A stretch of DNA of 63,720 nt, the filler included, from Bonamia ostreae (taxonomy: Eukaryota), in the NCBI GenBank assembly GCA_040357525.1. It is 51 parts of 51 records of this genome, joined end to end, with 100 filler letters (N's around TTAATTAATTAA, not from the genome) between each part and the next. Parts side by side here need not be neighbours in the genome. Positions count along the whole stretch, not along the records: positions 3,776 to 4,933 come from JBDODL010002495.1; 50 more parts are not named here. One strand, 5' to 3'. A program made the translations under genes and the position numbers. Numbering within the stretch: position 1 is the stretch's first letter; each line of letters opens with the position of its first letter. Positions 3,329 to 45,029 of the stretch are shown here, one piece after another. The notes beneath the pieces were generated by a model. That model was not told where the DNA came from, made no database searches, and saw nothing but the letters and a program-made list of their open reading frames with translations.

Positions 3329-3775
3329 ATAATTTTTGAGAAAAAGTTTATTGATCAAATAATTTTTGGAATGTTTTGTCAATGTTAAAAATTTGATCAA
3401 ATAAATTTTTGTTTAACCATTTTTACGTGAATTCGAGTTAAGTCTGCGCGTTCCACATTTTTTATTTGAAAATTTCAGCGCCGACTTTAATTTCGGCTTT
3501 GGCTGCGTGGAAAGGCCATTTTGCCATAAAGGATTTTAATAAATATATCACCATTTTTGAGTAAACAAATTTTGGCTGTACATTTACATTCGCCAAGTCA
3601 CTTATCACATACGCTCTTCGCAAAAGCTCCTTGTTCCTGGACACATCTGGATCCCAGATGACAGCCATGTTCAGCNNNNNNNNNNNNNNNNNNNNNNNNN
3701 NNNNNNNNNNNNNNNNNNNTTAATTAATTAANNNNNNNNNNNNNNNNNNNNNNNNNNNNNNNNNNNNNNNNNNNN

Positions 3776-4390
3776 TTTGAAACAATTTTAAAAATTTTTG
3801 TTTAAAATTCGCAACAAAACCTGTGAAAGCTATTAACCAACACAACAATCCTTTGATTTCGGAAACAAACAACAAAACAACAAAAACAACTTTCAATTTA
3901 TCAAAAAAATTTATTAAAAATAAGTTAAAATCCGAAAAGCTAAAATCATTTTAAGCTAATTAATATAATAAAACCGATTGAATAAATAATGTTCAAAACA
4001 GTTTTATCGATCGTAAAATCACCCATTTTGACTTCAACGCCAAAATATTGAACATAAAAAACATAAGCTCCTTCATATAATTAAACAAATTGTAACTCCG
4101 AAATTTAAAATGGCTCTCGAAATTACAAAAAACCTATTGCCGCTAAAAGCACAAGCCAAATAAACATTTTTGGCGCTAAGAAACCATTCAAAACAAAAGC
4201 GAATATTAAGAAAATTAAATAGTTTAAAGAATAATAAGCTCTTTTGGATTTTTAGATTTTTTATTGAAAATAACAAGTTCGAATCGATTCTTTTAGTAAC
4301 TGTAGAATAATTAGGCGATCTAAATTCGTTAAAAAATTCATTCCATTTTCTTAATTTCATTAGAAGACTTTGATATGATAATTTAGCCAT
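3776..4390 (-). CDS. PRA1: PRA1-family (prenylated Rab acceptor) membrane protein, 3'-partial; first intron 4241-4274
   Basis: Spliced MAKLSYQSLLMKLRKWNEFF...KRIDSNLAYYSLNYLIF matches the PRA1 LRxWxEF and RxxxNLxYYxxNY motifs, followed by hydrophobic segments. Confidence 0.8.
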
Positions 4391-4933
4391 GTCTATTTTT
4401 GTTGATTCGAATGGCAGTCCTCTGCGATTTTTAATAATTCCCAAAAACAAAACATTCAAATTGGTAAAAGAAAACATTATCGTTTTCTTAAAATTTAGCA
4501 ATTATTAGGAAAATGGAGGGAAATTATCAAAAACTCACAAAAATTCGATAATTTTGTGCACCGATAAAAATTATCTTTTTGGACTTTCCTTAAAAGCTCG
4601 AAAAAATAAAAAATTTTATGACAAATGTTTTGTAGAAGATTGCATTAAAACGAACAAACTTTTAAAAATTGAAAATTATTTGATAAAACCATTTTCTGAA
4701 AAACCGGTTTTGGCTAAAAAGCATTCCGCAGTGGTTTTAGACACGGATTTAGCCAAAACGAAAATTGATTATAAAAAGATAAATAAGTTTGGAAATGAGA
4801 GGCAAAAACTTTTAGGGCGGAAAGTTTATGATCGAGAAGATGATTTGGGGATTATTAATTATTTGAAAGAAATGAAAGAAAAAGGAATTACAAAATTCAA
4901 AGGGAAAAATGTTTGGCTAAATTTGGCTAATTC
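4389..4933 (+). CDS. RAP1: Telomere protein RAP1 (TERF2IP), BRCT + Myb, 3'-partial; 27-nt intron 4482-4508
   Basis: MSIFVDSNGSPLRFLI..IIENGGKL..FVEDCIKTNKLLKIENYLI (BRCT) and GRKVYDREDDLGIINYLKE..GKNVW (Myb) parallel the TERF2IP domains. Confidence 0.85.
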
Positions 4934-5069
4934 NNNNNNNNNNNNNNNNNNNNNNNNNNNNNNNNNNNNNNNNNNNNTTAATTAATTAANNNNNNNNNNN
5001 NNNNNNNNNNNNNNNNNNNNNNNNNNNNNNNNNATAAATGAGGAAACATCATTCAATGAGATATCTGAA

Positions 5070-10440: not shown

Positions 10441-10646
10441 TTTAAGCTAAATTTAGGGTTTTGTTTATAAGCGATTTGACATATAACAAATTATAACATT
10501 TTGCTTGTCGTTATAAATATCAAATAAACAAACGATTTCTTGGTATTAGCAAGAAAACTAAATTTCAAATGCATTCTTATCAACAACTTACAATATAATC
10601 CCAAAAAACATAAAATATATTCAAAAACAAAATCCGAAGAGCTATA

Positions 10647-13954: not shown

Positions 13955-14431
13955 TTATTTTAGAATTTTGGACATTTTTGCCAATTTTTCTTTTATTTTC
14001 AGTTTTTTAACGTCTTTTTTGCTAATTTTTTTGTGTGATTCTTGCTGAGCCATTAGTTTGTTTTTGTGTTCAGAGCAGCTAAATTTTAGATTTTTAATAT
14101 TTTGTGCGTGATTTTTATTGCTAATTTTTGTTGATTTGAGGTTTCTGATTTGAGTTTCTGTCAAAAATTGTCCATTTGTTTCCGAATTGAATTTTTTTAC
14201 GTCGGTTTCAGAAAAATCACTCAAATTCGTTATTACTGGTTTTTCGTGGTCATAAAACGGTCTTTCTTTGACCTCCTTTTCAACTGCTTTTCTTTTGTTT
14301 ATAAAATGAAACATTTCTGTTAAAGACAAAGGATTAGCGCTTTTGGTTTCTGAAATGTTGAGGTCTTTCTTGATTTCTCTGAGAAAAGTTGGCGTTCTTT
14401 CCTTGTATTCTATGTTTGTCAATTGTGACAT
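13955..14431 (-). CDS. 158-aa basic hypothetical protein (protist)
   Basis: Complete ORF, head-to-head with the ORF at 14680. Confidence 0.55.
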   Translation of the reverse strand: MSQLTNIEYKERTPTFLREIKKDLNISETKSANPLSLTEMFHFINKRKAVEKEVKERPFYDHEKPVITNLSDFSETDVKKFNSETNGQFLTETQIRNLKSTKISNKNHAQNIKNLKFSCSEHKNKLMAQQESHKKISKKDVKKLKIKEKLAKMSKILK

Positions 14432-21366: not shown

Positions 21367-22455
21367 CTTATTCTCTTTCAGCATTTTGAGTGCGTGCTCC
21401 AAATGGTGCCGGAACAACTCCTCGTTGTTCCAAACCTGCTGGAAAGCTGCGTTGTCCATCTCCAGGAACATCCCCGTTATCTTCGGAGCGTGCTCCGGCG
21501 ACACCTGGTTCACCCGCGCGAAGATCATGTCTCCCCGGTGCGACTCGTCCGGCGCCGCCCGCTCCACCTGCTGCTCCGCCGCCCTCGGAACCGCCCCCAC
21601 CATCGCCTGCTGCCTCCCTCCCACCGCCATCTGCGGCACCCGCGCGCCTCCCCACCTCGAAGGCCCTCCTCCGTACATGTAGCCCTGCGCCAGCTGCTGC
21701 GGGTAGATCAGCGGCGCCGCCGACTGGTACATCCCCGCGCCGAACTGCGGCGGCGCCTGCATGAACTTGCGGTTGCTCTGCGCCTGCATCTCCAACTGCT
21801 GCTTGCGCACGTGCTTGCGCTGCCAGAAGGCCACGAAGAGCACCTTCCCGACCCACATCTTCCCGTGCAGCGCCTTGATCCCGCTCGCCGCGTCCTCCTT
21901 CGTCGCGTACAGCACGAAGCCGAAGCCCTTCGAGACGCCGCGTTCGTCCATCCGCACCTTCGCGGAGACGACCTGCCCGTACTTGGAGAACTCCTCGCGG
22001 AGGAGATCGTCATCGACGCTCTCGGGGAGGTTCTTGACGTAGACGTTGCGCCCGGCGGTGTTCGTGTCCATCTCCTCGCGCCACTTCAGGTACTGCTGGT
22101 GCAGCTTGTTGCGGCGCATCGACTTGCTCAGCGCTTTTGCGACGTAGAGCTTCTCGGGATCTTTTTCGTGGAGCTCTTCGATGACGCGCTTGGAGACGAG
22201 CGGGTCCTTGAAGTTCACGAAGCCGAAGCCGGCGGGGACGGAGTCGTGCACGGGGAAGTGGACGCTGGTCACCTCGCCGTGTTTCTGGAAGAAGGCGAGG
22301 AAGGCGGCTTCGTCGGGGAAGAGGCTCGCGTTGAAGTTTTTGACGTAGACGTTTGTGAACTTGGGCTCGCCGGTGTTGCGGGAGCCGCTCGGTTTGAAGG
22401 GGCAGACTTCGACGACCCTCGAGGCGATTTCCATGTTGTTCACTTTTTCTATCGC
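21367..22455 (-). CDS. PABPC: Polyadenylate-binding protein (RRM3, RRM4, linker, MLLE), partial, GC-rich exon
   Basis: FTNVYVKNF, GRNVYVKNLPESVDD, SKGFGFV and MLLE motif APKITGMFLEMD; acceptor ...AATCGAAAG at 22456. Confidence 0.96.
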
Positions 22456-25108
22456 CTTTCGATTATTGGATTTGTTCGAAAAAAATTTGATAAAAATAAT
22501 TTTTGATCGATTTATTGACANNNNNNNNNNNNNNNNNNNNNNNNNNNNNNNNNNNNNNNNNNNNTTAATTAATTAANNNNNNNNNNNNNNNNNNNNNNNN
22601 NNNNNNNNNNNNNNNNNNNNAAATAATGAGTCAAACATCGGATCATGTTTAAATAGCAATGCCAATAAAACTTCCTTATGAACAGGAAGACGAAACACCA
22701 GAGACGTGGTGCTCAACGTATGTTATTTAAATATTTATATATATTATGATTTTCTTCTTTGTATTTTCTATTTTCAAGAATTTTAGGACTGATGTTATAG
22801 CATACACATGTACTTTTCTTCTGAATGATATTTACTCCAGGAAAAATAATGGTCCAAGGATATATTTCTTCCCAAAGAATACTGAATCGAGATTGAAATT
22901 TCTTCCTAGAAAACATCCCCAGTATAATATATGTCCCTAAAGGACAGTACTTAACCCCCATCCCCAATCTAGCAATTATCTAGTTTTGATCCATGCAGTT
23001 CGTCAAATTTATTCATAGATGGAGATTACTATAGTAATCAATGTAGGCTATAGTAGATCTAACTTAAATCAAGTTTTTATTGATCAATACGTCTGTCTGA
23101 AACTTTAACCTCTCATTGCCTTTGCTCATAACATTTGAATGGAGCGCGAAAGGGCNNNNNNNNNNTACATTCCTTGTGGCAAGACCTTTTATTATTTTAT
23201 AGTTTGACCCACTTCTTAAAAAAAAGAATCTTACCAATTGCGAGGCAATATACCGTGTGGTATTTAAAGTAATGATTTCATATTTTGTACATGCTTGTAT
23301 ATGCAGATTATTCATGGCACAACTTTTTATTTCATCCTTGACCCTGCATTGAGTTGAACTCAATTTTTCAAACTTTAACCTTGCCCATACCCTTTGAATG
23401 GTCTTACATTTCTTGTGACAAGACAGTTCTTTCAGAACAAAAGTATTTTTTTTTATCTTGTAGCATTTATCGAAGAGATTAACCTATTTTTAAGAAAATC
23501 TAAAATAATCTAGACAATATCTTCTGCACAACTTTAGGATATACTTCTCATATTGTGTTTATTGAGCTATTATGGCAAGACCCCCCCCCCCCTTTTATGG
23601 ATATCATGATCTTTAACCTTAATTAATTAATTAACTTTGGTCCAAATTCCAGAACTTTAACATTGCTTATAATTTCGTGTGAGACTCATCGTCGTAACGA
23701 AGTGTGATACTTTACCATGCAACTTCTCATTAAATTATGTTTTTGTCTTTTGCCTTTTAATAATTATTCCAATANNNNNNNNNNNNNNNNNNNNNNNNNN
23801 NNNNNNNNNNNNNNNNNNTTAATTAATTAANNNNNNNNNNNNNNNNNNNNNNNNNNNNNNNNNNNNNNNNNNNNAAAATATATGTGTGACATTTTGGGAC
23901 GTTTATATGAAAATACAGTCTGCTCTTTCCTTGATGGACCTTTCACGTTATCTTTCACTTCACCCTTACCACATAACATCGGGGTACAAATGCCACCTAG
24001 TAATGAATGATAAAGGCTTGGCATCGATGTAAATTGAGAACACAACTGGGCACACGAGGTAATTAAAAAGTGCTTTATTATAACACCAAAAGTGACAATG
24101 AAGCATTGGTTTTAAGCTGTGATCCGATAGGTTAGTACTAAGTTTCATACCTGATGTCGATCTAAACAGTTATTAGATTGCTCTAGTAATTCCAAAGGTT
24201 TACTACAAACTGGTTCGAACTCAATGAAGATCATGCAGTTCTAAAGAAAATTCAAGGGAAATTGACTCCTGATTTAAGAACCGTCAAATGTGTAGACTGG
24301 ATCATAAATTGCCACGGAAAGACACCACATTGTATCTGCTGTATGAGGTTTAGTATTGTCATTATTATGCATAATATTGTAAGAAATGTATCAAATTGTT
24401 GTGTTTGATAACATGCATCGACAAAACACAATATGCACAAACTAAAAATATGAAGTATGGCCACCACGTCAAATAGCGCGTGCTCTGACTCTATGATGTC
24501 ACAGAATATTATGTTTTTACACAGATGTTAAAGTGTCTTGAAAATTGTCCAGAAAGTTTGGTATCATTTTAATCACATGTCCCTGCCAGTCTAAATACTT
24601 AGCTGAAGTAAAAATAAGACATAGATTATGTTGCATTGCAATTTAGTGTTAAACAATAGAATGTGAAGTTTGCATGTTCATGCAAGTATGTAATAGTGAC
24701 ATAATTTACTTGTCATACAATGCTAATTCTTTTCAAAAACAGTTTTAGTGAGTTTGAGATATTTACAAATAGCTTGTCTAGACAAGGAAGTCAGAGAACA
24801 TTTGAAATTCATTGGCTTAAAACCAGCAAATCGTTGGACATATAAGTCGGTGTTCTTTATATGTCAGTTTGAAAACAAAACGTATACGATCAATTGCAAA
24901 TCATGTGAAAAGAAATTCTTATCTAAACATTACCTATAACAAAGATACATTGTATATCGTTTTATAGAACCCAAACAATTCAACTGAAAAGCAAACTCTA
25001 AGTGTTGAATTGCTATATCCCAAATATANNNNNNNNNNNNNNNNNNNNNNNNNNNNNNNNNNNNNNNNNNNNTTAATTAATTAANNNNNNNNNNNNNNNN
25101 NNNNNNNN

Positions 25109-25225: not shown

Positions 25226-27369
25226 ATTGCATCAATGACCCTATAAGGTCTCCATACCCTATAACGCTGAAAATTTCTTACTTTTTTTTTTAGAGTGATA
25301 TGTCCTTTGATGTGACTGATAACCTAAAGTGCTATAGATGGCAATGATTGGAAATTTTCGAATCATTATATAAGACAAAGAAAAGATTCTTTGCGTCGTC
25401 AGTGTATTGTTGATGTACACATGTAAAGAAGTCTAAATCCTATAAACAATGTTTCTTTGTTTTTCAAAATTTGTCTCAAGGAAGGTGTTCTTTGAAATGG
25501 AATTCAATGAACACATTTACAGTGCCGTAAATGATACTCAGAACATATGTATGTACATCGTAGATATCTATTTACCATAAAATTAGATGACTTGTTTAAA
25601 ATGAAAGAATATTAATAGCATATCCCACTCTGTCATCTGTGTTTTTGTATTTCATAAGATTCTTTTTTTCTGCAGCTATCATTAAAACGAGGGATAAGAA
25701 ACCCATTGTTATTTATGCATTACACTGGATCTAAATACAAGTAAATTTAACGAATGAATATGTTCGATTCTCAATTCCAATATTGTGTAAAATTATGTAA
25801 TTCATTGCTTGGTCGGGTGAACACCACAAACTGTAATGCAGACATTGAAATCGTTTCTTCATAATACCACGTGTCTGTTCAATGAGTGCCCTTGTTCTAC
25901 AGAGGTAACGGGTAAACTTTTCTTGCGTTGGATTACTGAAAGCATTTTATGGGGTCATGAAGAAGCGGGAGCAGGGATAACCGAAGCCCCTAAGTGGTAT
26001 CCCACTGTGAAATCCTGTTGGAGAAATTGGTCGAAAAATCAATTCAAATGATTCATATTCTCACAATCATAGACACAAATTACCCCCTCATTGCAATGCA
26101 TAATGAATTTCTATTGCTTTTCAAAATTGATCTCTCGTATATACATATACATGTACCTTTTCCAACTGATGACTTAGTGCTTGTTTTGTTTACTACATTA
26201 ATTCATGATTGGACAAAATTTGTGGGAGGGGTTTATCAATATAAGCACGTGTACTCTTAGCCTTTTTCCATACAGTTAAAGNNNNNNNNNNNNNNNNNNN
26301 NNNNNNNNNNNNNNNNNNNNNNNNNTTAATTAATTAANNNNNNNNNNNNNNNNNNNNNNNNNNNNNNNNNNNNNNNNNNNNAGCAAATTACACTGCAAGT
26401 GATCTACAAGTAGTATACGAGCTGTTGAGTAATTTCATTTTTTTTTCCATGAGGCAATTGAGACCAACAACACCTGATGAATTCCAGTGTGGTAGTGGCT
26501 CAGCTAATCAGGGAATAGAATTCTGGTTGTGTTTCCTTCGGAGCCAGTGCACTGAGTTTTGGGTCTCTTTTTAATAAAAAAAATTACGGCAATCTGGTGT
26601 GTTTAATGGGGAGCGTATGGAACAGAAACTTATTTGTTTTGTATCTACAGATATTATTTAGATTCGTTTTTACGCACAAGTTATTCTAATTAATGTTGTT
26701 AAATCAGAATTACAAGTGCAGACATCAGACATACAAGTAAATGTGTATTTCTTTAATTTTCAAACTTTTGTTACATTTGTCATAGAATTTGTGAATTGTG
26801 ATTTTATTTATTTTGAAGTCAATGCCGCAATTTATTAAATTGTTTGCAAAGAAAACAGCTCATTATTTTAAAATTTGAATATATCAGTGGTCCCAACCTA
26901 CCCTCCCCCTCCCCTAGTGGGTAAAAATTCCTTCAAATTTGAAGTTACACCAACTGAGGATGATTCTATATCACTTTGACTAATCATGGCTTTAGAATTT
27001 TTAAAAAGAATTCTTCCATAAAAATCCCCCTGTAAAAGTTTGATCCCCTGCTGTAACCCCACCCTACCTCTGGGATATCATGATTTTCACAAGCTTGAAT
27101 ATACAATGCCGTAGGATTCGTCCACGTGGCTTTGCTGTTCTTGAGGGGAAGCTCTTTAAAAATGTTTCCTACTTACATGATTCAAATTTAATATAAATAT
27201 CCTAATTACCACAAACTCACATAAAACAAATCCAATCTTTCTTTTAAAGTGTTTGAAATAGGCCAATATAACCAGAGATATCATTTAAACAATTATCGGA
27301 TAGCATTGCTACTTCGTTCTCACGAAAGCCCATTGAACTCATTTTCAAAGCTGAAAAAAAAAAATCATT

Positions 27370-36389: not shown

Positions 36390-36685
36390 GATCAAAATAT
36401 ATCAAATTTGTTTTTTAAGATCTGGAAATTCAATTTTTTATAAAAAAATAACGGAGTAAATGGTATTGCGATAGTTGCTAGCATGAGAAGAGAATGCATT
36501 TTCTCCTGAGACGCGTTTTCTTTGAGTGAATCCGACGATTGAAGGCGTTTTTCGATTGGAATAATCGTTTGTTGCGATATTTATTCCGCATTTTTTGGCG
36601 ACTCCGATGATCGAATTGTTGCTTCCAAAGTCAATTCCAGCGACTCCTACGTTCTTTATTTAAAGTAAATTTGATTTGGAACCAT
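36390..36685 (-). CDS. Hsp110/SSE-type Hsp70-family chaperone, N-terminus; ATG-only first exon, intron 36654-36682
   Basis: Spliced MNVGVAGIDFGSNNSIIGVAKKCGINIATNDYSNRKTPSIVGF; absent from the ORF track. Confidence 0.88.
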
Positions 36686-37490: not shown

Positions 37491-38905
37491 GTCAGATTTT
37501 TTATTATTAAATTTAAAAGTGTCTAAATAAATTGTAAACNNNNNNNNNNNNNNNNNNNNNNNNNNNNNNNNNNNNNNNNNNNNTTAATTAATTAANNNNN
37601 NNNNNNNNNNNNNNNNNNNNNNNNNNNNNNNNNNNNNNNTAAACTGATATCGCATAGAAAATGAAAATGCTCAAAGTTCTTGGTCATCAGATGAACAATG
37701 ACATTGATCTAATAATATTGATCTACGCCAGCTAGGCATTTGATTTATTTGTCATGAGTATTTCCCATTGTTTACATATTTATATATATGTTATAAAAAT
37801 CGTATTATTACATTTCTTTTTAGACCAATTGGAAAGAGAGAGAAGGGACTTTCAAGGTTTGTTAATATAAAACAGAATGTGATGCCAAATAATGATGAAT
37901 TCTAATGTATTATATCTCCACAATCGGTATTTTTACTTTTTATCTTTCCCAGTTCAAATTACAACAACAAAAATGAAATAGAAGTTTTCAAATGCTAATA
38001 TATTTTACTAAAATATATTTTGCTAAAAAGCTGAAATATTATGAAATAAAGTCGAAAGTACATCCATTTTGTGCATATTTTCAGGTTGTTGATTGTCCGA
38101 AACAAGAAATATACAAAATACTGAATATTCATAAAATAATAGATGCAGATTAGATACTACATTGTACGTCATGCTATTTTCAGATAACCTTCGAAGAACA
38201 AACGAAAAGTACGGTAAGTACAAAATGTGTGTAGGTCAGTGTCATCAATAAACTGGTTCCCCGTTATTGATCTTTTTTTTAAAGTGTCATCATTAGATTG
38301 GCTCCTTTTATTGATGTTTTGAAAGAAAAGGTATACCGTCATAGTGTAAAATGTTTGAATATGTACATTACTGATCTTCCATCAATATTCAGTTAGACAA
38401 CCATTTTAGTAAGGAATTGGAAGCTTAGAATTATGACCAATTCCAAGACTGGCATGTGTAACGGGGAGATGAGTCGGTGAATGATTCGCAGCAGAGTAGG
38501 ATTACAACTTGGAGCCTCTCATTCTCTACGCCAAATGTTTTTTCACCTTCGATACCAGTCCACCGGCGAGGTAGACTATCTGACTGCTACGTTCCACTTC
38601 CCTCCCATCAAAAGTCAGATCGTCCCTGATCAATCCGTTATTTTCTTGACGAGACAAGTCTGGAACACGAATTTGGGCCCTTTGAATCTATAAACAAGTC
38701 CTATTTCTATACACATATAAGTCAAGGTCAGTTACATTTCTTTTCATACAAATGAGAATTTAAGAAACCCAAAACCAACATGTTTTAAANNNNNNNNNNN
38801 NNNNNNNNNNNNNNNNNNNNNNNNNNNNNNNNNTTAATTAATTAANNNNNNNNNNNNNNNNNNNNNNNNNNNNNNNNNNNNNNNNNNNNAGATACAGTGC
38901 AGAGT

Positions 38906-39802
38906 TTACTCCGCCTCGTTTCCGTTTACAGCATTCTCCTTCTCGTTTTCGCCTCCCCCGCGCCGGTTTCTCCTGCGGCCGCGGCCTCGACGCCCTCTCC
39001 CTCCTCGGAAGCGGCTGGACCCAAACAGCATCGACTTCGGCGCCGCGACTGCCATGAGAGTCTTGTCGTTCACCTTCGCGCCGTTGATGTTGGCGATCGC
39101 CTTTTCGGCCATTTTCGGGTTTTTGTAGGCGACGATGGCGTGATCCTTCGAGAACCGGAAGGAAACGACCTCCCCGTTGCCTTCTGCCTGCTTCCGGATG
39201 GATTCCTTCGGCACAGAGGCGTCATAGTTGGCGATCATCACCGCGTTTCGGAGAGGAGCGCCGGTCGACCGGAATCTCGGCGTGAATCGCTTCGGCCGAG
39301 ACTGTTCCACAACGGCCTTCTCGCCTTCGAGCTCGACTCCTTCTTCCGCGGCCTTCTCCGCGGAGGAGACATCTTCGAACTTGATGAAGGCGTAGGGCTT
39401 GTTGTCTTTCGCGGGGCTGCGCAGCAAGATGACTTCGTCGATGGTCCCATATTTCTCGAAAGCTTTGCGCAGGTTCTCCTCCGTGACTTCATCGCCGAAC
39501 TCCGCCACGTACACTTTGCGCTTGGATTCCTCCGCGCGAATCTGTCGAATCGACTTTTTGTAATCGGCGACAGTGCAGCTCTTTCCCTGCAGCTTCTGCT
39601 CGATAACAGCTTTCTCCGAGTTTTTCTTGTTTTCGTCTTCGTAGGTGAGGATGCAGAAGTTGGCGCCCTGAATGACTGCGTCTTCTTTGTAGTCGGCGAC
39701 GAGAGCCAAAAGGTCGTCTTTCGTGTCCTCGCCGAACCGGATGTAGATGCTCCTCTCCTCGCTGGGCTCTATTTTCTTGCTTTTGGTTTCGCTGTCTGAC
39801 AT
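38906..39802 (-). CDS. Multi-RRM RNA-binding protein with C-terminal RGG tail (nucleolin/Gbp2-like), intronless, GC-rich
   Basis: RNP motifs KVYVAEF..KPYAFIKF; three RRM-like units; FRGGRGRRGRGRR tail. Confidence 0.85.
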   Translation of the reverse strand: MSDSETKSKKIEPSEERSIYIRFGEDTKDDLLALVADYKEDAVIQGANFCILTYEDENKKNSEKAVIEQKLQGKSCTVADYKKSIRQIRAEESKRKVYVAEFGDEVTEENLRKAFEKYGTIDEVILLRSPAKDNKPYAFIKFEDVSSAEKAAEEGVELEGEKAVVEQSRPKRFTPRFRSTGAPLRNAVMIANYDASVPKESIRKQAEGNGEVVSFRFSKDHAIVAYKNPKMAEKAIANINGAKVNDKTLMAVAAPKSMLFGSSRFRGGRGRRGRGRRRNRRGGGENEKENAVNGNEAE

Positions 39803-40138
39803 TTCTGTCTAGTGGTATTCCGTTGCCTGTTTAGCTTATTATTTAAATTTTAGCTTTCGGTATATGGGACAGAGTTAACGAAAGTGTTTCTAAATTGGAG
39901 TTAGGTTAGCAATAAACAGTTTTTGCTTTATCTTGTTTTCACGTTTATCGGGATCGAGTAAGTTTTGGGTTTGTTCGTTCGATTTTTAACTTTCTAAATC
40001 TTGGGACTTATTATTTTTTTTTAACAATTTTGGAATTNNNNNNNNNNNNNNNNNNNNNNNNNNNNNNNNNNNNNNNNNNNNTTAATTAATTAANNNNNNN
40101 NNNNNNNNNNNNNNNNNNNNNNNNNNNNNNNNNNNNNG

Positions 40139-43881: not shown

Positions 43882-45029
43882 TGCTTTGATTGCCAAAAAA
43901 TTTTGCGCAGATCAGTTTAATCAATGGCTTCGAGTCCAAATTCAATTCTTTTCTTTTTAAAGTTATCCCCAAATTTTCCAAGAACAAGGACATTGTTTCG
44001 CCTTTAAATAAATTTTAATCATTTTTTTAATATTTTATAAATTGGAAGAGTAATTTTTACTGTTTTTAAACTTTTCGGTTCGTTGCTAATTGCGACGGAA
44101 TAGATTTTGTAAAGCGGTTCTAGAACAAACTCGACGAAAGATCTTTTCGAATTTGAATTTGGCGGTGTGTTGTGGAATTTTCCTTTCGAGAAGTATTTGT
44201 TTCCCCAAAGTTTTGATGCAAATTTTTTTGCTTCTAAACCTTCTTGACATTTAATTTTTGCGTCAAAAACAAATTAAAGAATATCAAAATTTTTTGAGAA
44301 CAACAAATTATCGAAAATTATCAAATTTTGTTCTTCGCATCAAAAACAATTTTATTGAACAACAAATTTTGATCAAAACAAATTATCGAAAAATTGCAAT
44401 AAACCATTTCGATCTTGATATTTTCTGGACAGAGAATCTAAAGTAAAACTCCAACCAAAAAGAGCGCTTGAAAAACAAACATTTCCTCTTTCCGGAGAAA
44501 TTTGAGCGGGATATTTAAGATTCGTCAAAAGATCGTTAATCTCTTTGAAAATGCCAAACAATTTATGGTAGCTGTCTTTCGGCGGCAATTTTAATTCCAA
44601 AATTAATCTGTCCATTTTTGTCATTACAACAACTATTGGAACCCCATTTTCGACTAATTTATGTTTAAATTTTAGCAAATTAATTTTATTTTCCAATATA
44701 GAATGGCTAAATTTTATTTTTCGACAAATTTGTTTTCAATTTTTTTAGCCAAATCAAAATTTTAAAATTTTGTCAAATAAACTTGAATGTTTGATTGAAC
44801 GAATAGTTTGTTTCATTACGCCTTCAACGACGTCAATAAAAATGACAGCGCCGTCACTTATTCGAAGAGCAGCTGTTTGCTCATCAGAAAAGTTGACGTG
44901 TCCGGGAGTATCCATTATGTTCAACAGAAAAGATTTTTCTTTTCCAAAACCGGTTTCCAAAATTAGCGAGATTGGAGATGATTTTATGCTCAATCCTCGT
45001 TCCTGTTCATCTTTTCCAACATCCTTTAT
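43882..45029 (-). CDS. EFTUD2: U5 snRNP GTPase Snu114/EFTUD2, internal part with three introns
   Basis: [59 protein letters not shown]. Confidence 0.96.

Follow-up and report, generated by a model that had tools for sequence, protein, structure and literature searches.

Divergent, spliced PRA1 and RAP1-like genes of Bonamia ostreae with start codons that may interlock in a CATG palindrome

The 63,720-base window of DNA from the oyster parasite Bonamia ostreae analysed here contains a head-to-head gene pair, in which a PRA1 gene on the minus strand and a RAP1-like gene on the plus strand diverge from the neighbourhood of a single CATG palindrome. The window joins 51 unrelated scaffolds (1145–1159 bp, ordered by length) through 50 linkers, and positions are counted along it; the pair lies entirely within one scaffold at 3776–4933 (1158 bp, G+C 0.263, with values of 0.241–0.606 across the scaffolds of the window). 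Because the scaffolds are unrelated, genes on either side of a linker are not genomic neighbours, and conclusions about the organism drawn from other scaffolds are unsafe. The original prediction placed opposed ATGs in the palindrome at 4388–4391 and named the two products PRA1 and RAP1; the sequence is present as claimed, and both products are recognisable, with PF03208 and BRCT_2 matches above their cut-offs and with splicing and synonymous variants that concur. The features of the scaffold, several of them read from a public run (X3) described below, are as follows.

3676–3775: artificial linker, 44 N + TTAATTAATTAA + 44 N, at the left edge of the PRA1/RAP1 scaffold
3776–3820, minus strand: beginning of PRA1 intron 4, donor GTTTTG at 3820, where an X3 contig exits the scaffold
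3821–3889, minus strand: PRA1 exon 4, hydrophobic, candidate for the second hairpin
3890–3974, minus strand: PRA1 intron 3, 85 nt, GTTTTA...AAAG, spliced in X3
3975–4070, minus strand: PRA1 exon 3, from X3 contigs
4071–4133, minus strand: PRA1 intron 2, 63 nt, GTTTTT...GAAG, holding three in-frame TAA, spliced in X3
4134–4240, minus strand: PRA1 exon 2, from X3 contigs
4241–4274, minus strand: PRA1 intron 1, 34 nt, GTTATT...AAAG, X3 joint 4240/4275 with a side of 84
4275–4390, minus strand: PRA1 exon 1 if the start is ATG 4390, with in-frame alternatives at 4360 and 4477
4388–4391: CATG palindrome, RAP1-like ATG 4389–4391 (plus strand) and candidate PRA1 ATG 4390–4388 (minus strand)
4389–4481, plus strand: RAP1-like exon 1, 31 codons, from the first in-frame ATG past TGA 4371–4373
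4482–4508, plus strand: RAP1-like intron, 27 nt, GTTTTC...TTAG; the 27 letters are omitted in the X3 contig, depth 2685 of 2685
4509–4933, plus strand: RAP1-like exon 2, with the remaining BRCT, a linker and the start of a candidate Myb-like region, continuing beyond the scaffold
4934–5033: artificial linker at the right edge of the PRA1/RAP1 scaffold

Five public entries contain all or part of this scaffold's sequence, four of them at least half of its words. Public runs were compared as assembled contigs (X1 to X4), which show neither RNA ends nor strand. X1 and X4 come from one study and X2 from another, and the sample of the assembly itself may be among them; X3 is taken as RNA from an automated guess and from a reading of its spliced contigs. 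Contigs of X3 leave out four parts of the scaffold: three, skipped at joints, have CT..AC ends and correspond to minus-strand introns of 34, 63 and 85 nt, and the fourth, an omission of 27 letters, fits a plus-strand GT..AG intron. For the 34-nt and 27-nt introns the spliced contig is the only one in the X3 depth table. Two of the joints have short sides (26–27 letters) and were flagged as weak, yet their ends are canonical, the frame is kept and homology is restored. All five introns of both genes open with GTT, four of them (27–85 nt) with RNA support. Introns on opposite strands are thus spliced in one RNA-like run, and PRA1 and the RAP1-like gene are both expressed and divergent. Intron 2 of PRA1, which keeps the frame, occurs in X3 in two forms, spliced at a contig depth of 8907 and retained at one of 3568.

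The identity of the minus-strand gene is seen best in the deposited spliced model (P0004), of which residues 39–142 match positions 3–107 of the 143 of PF03208 at 54.6 bits (cut-off 30.1, E 1.1e-14); exons taken singly reach E values of only 0.011 and 0.02. A search with the first exon returned one protein, hypothetical protein MHBO_003777 of Bonamia ostreae (144 amino acids, encoded on a contig of 1158 bp), and word-based homologue searches likewise returned the deposited protein alone (1/1 and 1/64 candidates). Searching 1.84 billion representatives in full with HMMER yielded 45 homologues with E values up to 0.001, all predicted proteins and some possibly truncated, which share with P0004 a conserved N-terminal R-x-W-x-E-F-F and N...Y..NY core. 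An alignment (A1) of P0004 with 25 of the 45, picked for possessing N-terminal sequence and hence biased on the N-terminus, has P55, N67, N74 and Y75 as invariant and W45, F48, R63 and P91 as nearly invariant positions. The deposited MHBO_003777 starts at ATG 4477, runs into intron 3 and stops at TGA 3948–3946. Its 3′ end is probably mistaken, and we think that the 5′ end is as well. Past 3820, where a further exon would lie off the scaffold, the X3 contig carries 30 loose letters which, read by eye, would extend the frame to H..FRPR, resembling the A1 consensus HxxFRxR.

The product of the plus-strand gene matches positions 28/29–85 of the 86 of BRCT_2 (PF16589) at 29.2–29.5 bits (cut-off 27.3, E about 1e-6). 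Only about 45 residues of a candidate Myb region follow the BRCT before the scaffold ends, with no Myb_Rap1 Pfam match at E values up to 1, and the sole match to a solved structure is to human TERF2IP, weak at E 0.094, aligned from the BRCT end into the Myb start. The nearest Atlas cluster, which serves as a lead only, has Myb_Rap1 and BRCT_2 at 87% each and a score of 0.82. We call the gene RAP1-like, the Myb and C-terminal parts presumably lying beyond the scaffold. It seems to be unannotated in the deposited proteome: none of 30 candidates among deposited proteins of 77–247 amino acids, from a collection of 5.8 billion proteins, contained exon 2. The start at ATG 4389 is firm, because the frame is closed six codons upstream by TGA 4371–4373, because ATG 4389 is the sole in-frame ATG for about 150 codons, and because the BRCT_2 match opens at profile position 28–29 where exon 2 begins, so that the 31 codons of exon 1 have about 27 positions to fill.

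Differences between the runs are consistent with two coding frames. Both differences in PRA1 exon 1, which come from a single low-depth contig (depth 4.6), are synonymous third-position changes, as are six of the seven in RAP1 exon 2, where the remaining one changes K to Q. Eight of the nine differences in the two genes are synonymous, and both frames are under purifying selection. We also considered the variant-free interval 4317–4516 as a sign of constraint and rejected it, as gaps of 200 and 322 nt separate variant sites elsewhere on the scaffold. X2 and X4 have a second haplotype in common (differences at 4301–4898, seven of the sites in RAP1 exon 2), so at least two parasite strains or alleles are represented in the public data.

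A junction this tight could be an artefact, either because the assembly is chimeric at this point, as the original prediction allowed, or because the locus comes from a ciliate that reads TAA and TAG as Gln. The assembly is indeed highly fragmented (N50 1417 bp in the excerpted genome paper, PMC11069148), and a PRA1 frame with three in-frame TAA followed by TGA first pointed to genetic code table 6. However, the palindrome at 4388–4391 is crossed by contigs of three DNA runs from two studies, namely X1 record 5 (3979–4933), X2 record 7 (all 1158 bp, with eight letters differing) and X4 record 17 (3776–4440), as well as by one RNA-like run, and the junction is therefore no chimera. The three TAA lie in the 63-nt PRA1 intron 2 and a TAG lies in the RAP1 intron; both introns are spliced out in X3, which leaves frames that the standard code (table 1) reads through without a stop. 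No telomere repeats are found at the scaffold ends, and with the ciliate code we have also dropped the idea of a nanochromosome. The chance that either artefact accounts for the locus is negligible.

Six of the 157 CATG sites in the window have open reading frames (ORFs) of at least 35 codons in both directions, whereas 200 shuffles averaged 1.6 such sites and gave at most 7. Five of the six are on scaffolds of G+C 0.435–0.606, where long ORFs arise easily. The bare CATG/ORF pattern is within chance, and it is homology, splicing and synonymous variants that establish the pair. Inverted repeats around the CATG amount to short A+T-rich matches only.

The extent to which the two genes overlap depends on the PRA1 start, for which the frame offers ATGs at 4477, 4390 and 4360 (residues 1, 30 and 40 of P0004). 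A start at 4477 gives 89 nt of coding overlap and a start at 4360 gives none; with ATG 4390, 3 nt (4388–4390) lie before or in the RAP1 ATG, and 2 nt (4389–4390) are common to both start codons. The alignments of the 45 homologues begin at query residues 22–42: before residue 40 in 28, at or before residue 33 in 12, at or before residue 29 in six, and before residue 22 in none. The homologues have a median of 24 residues ahead of the position of residue 40, with at least 10 in 35 of them, fewer than 10 in the other 10 (none at all in two) and at least 39 in eight; residues 30–39 align in A1, itself chosen for N-terminal sequence, to a stretch found in every row. Because 28 of the 45 alignments pass upstream of Met 4360, and 12 come within three residues of Met 4390, a start at or above 4390 is favoured, and we regard ATG 4390 as the most likely of the three, with an even chance or slightly better of being correct. 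The PRA1 start that had been proposed in the palindrome is thus an in-frame ATG and the favoured one, although it is one of three candidates.

Evidence on the transcripts comes from X3 record 16 (730 nt), which covers 4157–4240 and then runs from 4275 to beyond 4933, lacking both the 34-nt minus-strand and the 27-nt plus-strand intron, such that RNA-derived words are continuous over the CATG. Contigs of this kind are built from 31-letter words. Since every 31-letter word over the junction is present in X3, the two transcript populations overlap by about 30 nt, barring rare read-through RNA or DNA traces, and this indicates, weakly, that the 5′ ends of the PRA1 and RAP1 mRNAs overlap. An overlap of about 30 nt exceeds even the 28 bp that would separate the coding sequences if PRA1 began at ATG 4360, so that with this start too one 5′ end would lie inside the coding sequence of the partner; at least one mRNA 5′ end is probably so placed. 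On the outer sides, no X3 contig holds bases of the 34-nt or the 27-nt intron, and abundant RAP1 transcripts therefore do not come from left of about 4245, nor abundant PRA1 transcripts from right of about 4510. With any PRA1 start, room is lacking for two conventional promoters and leaders.

Two out-of-frame upstream ORFs bear on how long the leaders could be.

4375–4386, plus strand: upstream mini-ORF, ATG + 2 codons + TAG, preceding the RAP1 ATG and read first by ribosomes in no RAP1 mRNAs but those that begin left of 4375
4393–4455, minus strand: upstream ORF, 20 codons + TAG, preceding PRA1 ATG 4390 and of consequence for no PRA1 mRNAs but those that begin right of 4455

RAP1 leaders longer than 13 nt would include ATG 4375, whereas short leaders bypass both upstream ATGs. 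The proposal that the 5′ ends and promoters lie inside the partner's coding sequence is upheld in part: the head-to-head arrangement, start codons 0–28 bp apart and RNA-derived continuity in X3 agree with it, although the sites of initiation are inferred.

Were PRA1 to begin at ATG 4360 (MKLRKW), the CATG would be a chance in-frame ATG outside the mRNA, there would be no coding overlap, and the following spacer would serve as a minimal, A+T-rich bidirectional initiator shared by both genes.

4361–4388: spacer of 28 bp that a PRA1 start at ATG 4360 would leave between the two coding sequences

PF03208 aligns from its position 3 at the residue directly before this Met, 17 of the 45 alignments begin at or past it, and, as noted, 10 homologues have fewer than 10 residues ahead; an intergenic region of 30 bp is also within the range typical of Giardia (PMC1885649, in the portion of that paper cited here). 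However, 28 alignments extend upstream of the Met, where 35 homologues have at least 10 residues, and the transcript overlap of about 30 nt indicated by 31-letter word continuity in X3 is too long for a 28-bp spacer. The RAP1 leader would have to begin at about 4359 or further left, with the upstream ATG 4375 included in it, and the base at −3 of ATG 4360 is C. We consider this start possible but doubtful.

The deposited model takes the opposite course and starts PRA1 at ATG 4477, with 89 nt (4389–4477) coding on both strands and 29 codons of PRA1 lying opposite RAP1 exon 1.

4391–4477, minus strand: N-terminal extension of MHBO_003777, 29 codons, antisense to RAP1 exon 1

ATG 4477 comes earliest in the open frame, its −3 base is A, a reverse-orientation copy of the motif AATTTAGC (considered below) is located 15–22 nt upstream, and eight of the 45 homologues have at least 39 residues ahead of the conserved core. 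Residues 1–21 of the extension, though, are reached by none of the 45 homologue alignments, and the antisense frame is open only since RAP1 exon 1 is without codons for Tyr, His and Gln, the sole codons that could give stops there. Gene predictors default to the longest ORF, and the deposited model also misses intron 3. Moreover, the RAP1 intron bases expected in a PRA1 mRNA beginning well right of 4482 are in no X3 contig, although a very short leader escapes this test. A start at ATG 4477 is accordingly unlikely. It follows that the absence of intergenic DNA, as first described, holds for PRA1 starts at 4390 and 4477 and gives way to the 28-bp spacer with 4360, and that the larger overlap foreseen from an upstream in-frame ATG has a real ATG behind it, at 4477 and with 89 nt, but an extension unmatched over residues 1–21 in all 45 homologues.

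A short motif next to the palindrome has a possible role as an initiator.

4380–4387, plus strand: AATTTAGC motif, ending 1 nt ahead of the RAP1 ATG; on the complementary strand it makes up PRA1 codons 2–4 in the ATG 4390 model; candidate initiator
4492–4499, plus strand: second copy of AATTTAGC, within the RAP1 intron, 15–22 nt upstream of the minus-strand ATG 4477

This 8-mer occurs 14 times in the window, with 4.71 copies expected (standard deviation 2.41), a count reached in none of 100 shuffles. Copies elsewhere, which include 10446–10453 (minus strand), 14078–14085 (minus strand) and 1983–1990, often follow TAA or AAA and often lie 1–24 nt ahead of an ATG. One is 5 nt before the ATG (10440, minus strand) of a BOP1-like gene, and others are 16 and 24 nt before two more ATG-led ORFs that are not independent, since the motif led to them; Hsp70-like and Acatn-like genes have AAATTTA immediately before the ATG. 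We collected eight homology-defined starts (RAP1, PRA1 at 4390, MRE11-like, BOP1, Dopey, Hsp70, Acatn and eIF2-alpha), and in four of these AATTTA occurs on the sense strand no more than 30 nt upstream, compared with 4.2% of 30-nt windows on A+T-rich scaffolds; the binomial P of 2e-4 is optimistic, the motif having been picked after looking. These observations hint that AATTTAGC is a start-proximal, initiator-like element. A copy at 44706–44713 is possibly at an intron end.

The same letters can be read differently, as AATTTAG/CC at 4380–4388, a 3′ splice site for a 5′-UTR (untranslated region) intron or a spliced leader, in which case the mature 5′ ends would be made by splicing and the promoters could be distant. 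The motif terminates in AG and lies 1–24 nt ahead of several ATGs, there is a GTT donor 59 nt upstream at 4328, and an assembler of contigs would clip short leader tips. Yet X3 contigs neither join nor break off at 4386/4387, the four introns with RNA support end in AAAG, GAAG, AAAG and TTAG, unlike AATTTAG, and two motif-bearing upstream regions are without a GT in the displayed 45–53 nt or so before the motif. In the literature seen in part, a search for 'spliced leader' with Ascetosporea, Haplosporidia or Bonamia gave nothing beyond a paper on fatty-acid and polyketide synthesis that also names Rhizaria and Haplosporidia. We regard a splicing origin of these 5′ ends as very unlikely.

The scaffold carries two real, spliced, expressed divergent genes, and we give about an even chance to the following explanation of the pair: PRA1 starting at ATG 4390, interlocked starts, initiation close to each start and short overlapping leaders. 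PRA1, a gene of a membrane-traffic family on the minus strand, and the RAP1-like gene, with BRCT followed by a candidate Myb-like region on the plus strand, would then diverge with their start codons interlocked in the CATG and with no untranscribed spacer between them. The pair would operate as in other compacted protists, both genes having very short leaders, with a small initiator beside each start codon. The candidate initiator for RAP1 is AATTTAGC at 4380–4387, which would double as PRA1 codons 2–4 on the opposite strand; transcription of each gene would start no more than some tens of bases into the partner's coding sequence, and at their 5′ ends the mRNAs would have some tens of bases of complementary sequence.

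Several observations weigh against this explanation. A contig that spans two genes is no proof of a single transcript, and at a depth of 2685 rare read-through RNA or DNA traces could bridge the junction; X1 to X4 are all contigs, such that the transcription starts of the pair are inferred, and X3 is taken as RNA from a guess together with its spliced contigs. ATG 4390 has G at −3, where five of eight starts collected by eye have A (two of the eight having been found through the motif and three being without Pfam support), and the opening of the PF03208 profile just one residue before Met 4360 and the 10 homologues with fewer than 10 residues upstream fit the downstream ATG. RAP1 exon 1 taken alone matches no Pfam family and no solved structure at E values up to 10. 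At least seven of the 14 exact AATTTAGC copies are not before an obvious gene start, and the sample consists of eight starts in one window. Finally, the only other definable head-to-head pair in the window, BOP1/Dopey, has a spacer of normal size (206 bp).

A broader hypothesis, which we put forward tentatively and hold to be less probable than the explanation of the locus itself, is that Bonamia ostreae, and perhaps haplosporidians generally, may make nearly leaderless mRNAs from an initiator A(A)ATTTAGC located 1–25 nt before the ATG, in the manner of Giardia but evolved independently in Rhizaria. The RAP1 initiator would then be embedded in the first PRA1 codons (Ala-Lys-Leu), the 5′ coding sequence of each gene would serve as the core promoter of the other, and the leading tens of bases of the two mRNAs would pair.

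Other scaffolds of the window yielded a few further observations. Two with long ORFs, at 21367–22520 (G+C 0.606) and 38890–40037 (G+C 0.514), encode RRM_1 and MLLE (poly(A)-binding-protein-like) and RRM_1 domains, and probably belong to an organism other than the A+T-rich Bonamia. A DDE_Tnp_4 transposase fragment is located at 25734–25946 (minus strand, E 5e-5, slightly below the cut-off) on a scaffold of G+C 0.35. At 36654–36685 (minus strand) the Hsp70-like gene (HSP70 profile 1–65, E 1.2e-15) has an apparent 29-nt GTT...AAAG intron right after the ATG at 36685–36683, and after removal of this intron the product, as read by eye, would begin M-NVGVAGIDFG.

The original prediction also linked the arrangement to a Piwi/Argonaute encoded by the same organism. 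This part finds no counterpart in the window, where none of 364 stop-to-stop ORFs of at least 50 amino acids (135 of at least 75 and 229 of 50–74) has a Piwi or PAZ Pfam match, and five short Piwi residue patterns matched nothing; since the window consists of 51 unrelated scaffolds, co-occurrence with a Piwi gene would in any case not show a single organism. The main texts of the B. ostreae genome and transcriptome papers contain no occurrence of promoters, UTRs, RNA interference, Argonaute, Dicer or Piwi, and the main text of the genome paper (PMC11069148) none of 'overlapping'.

The locus is of use in several ways. Start codons with RNA support at 0–28 bp from each other limit the amount of DNA needed for a haplosporidian core promoter and leader, and the pair yields a candidate initiator motif that is testable genome-wide. 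It also carries a warning for annotation, in that the PRA1 model is probably wrong and the RAP1-like gene is apparently missing; errors of these two kinds mean that published intergenic distances may be biased upward. Corrected gene models and the testable motif are the most useful by-products of the analysis.

How unusual the arrangement is can be judged first within the species. The excerpted genome paper (PMC11069148) gives an assembly of 12.24 Mb in 9705 scaffolds (N50 1417 bp, G+C 33.3%), with 5253 gene models, 2 introns per mRNA on average, intergenic distances with a median of 218 bp and a coding content of 32%. The second head-to-head pair in the window, BOP1-like (ATG 10440, minus strand) and Dopey-like (ATG 10647, plus strand) on a scaffold of G+C 0.315, is likewise divergent and has AATTTAGC 5 nt before the BOP1 ATG, but its 206-bp spacer is near the published median. 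If distances were roughly exponential with a median of 218 bp, several per cent would, as a rough estimate, be below 30 bp. PRA1/RAP1 is at the tight end for the species and is not its rule.

Outside the species, the description of the pair as extreme for a eukaryotic nuclear genome is overstated, as comparable arrangements are reported in the cited portions of papers on Giardia (PMC1885649) and microsporidia (PMC3629993). In Giardia lamblia, intergenic regions are typically 30–177 bp, 5′ UTRs are about 3–25 nt, and promoters fire both ways into the coding sequence of the neighbour (PMC1885649, Teodorovic et al. 2007); the Bonamia pair resembles this system in its very short intergenic region and, under the explanation favoured above, would also resemble it in short leaders, in an A+T-rich initiator element beside the start codon, and in antisense transcription running into the neighbour. 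The Giardia head-to-head pair ran/phd is served by a single short region. The spacing in that example is 153 bp, however, as compared with 0–28 bp in the Bonamia pair, its start sites are mapped whereas ours are predicted, and Giardia has few introns whereas both Bonamia genes are spliced; because Bonamia is a rhizarian, convergence would have to account for any likeness.

Compaction is also seen in microsporidia and nucleomorphs (Williams et al. 2005 and Corradi et al. 2008, cited in PMC3629993), with mRNAs that reach into adjacent genes, as those of the Bonamia pair may, and 5′ UTRs that in microsporidia are among the shortest known, but the microsporidian overlap is tied to the extracellular spore stage, and B. 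ostreae is less compact, with its 32% coding content and 218-bp median. The mammalian pair INO80E/HIRIP3, studied in human cells (PMC11890862, in the part cited), consists of divergent protein-coding genes with overlapping 5′ ends and an interplay of sense and antisense; the Bonamia pair differs in that its start codons touch, or nearly so, in a genome with tiny introns. Packing as tight as this is already known from compact protists, and PRA1/RAP1 changes no general principle.

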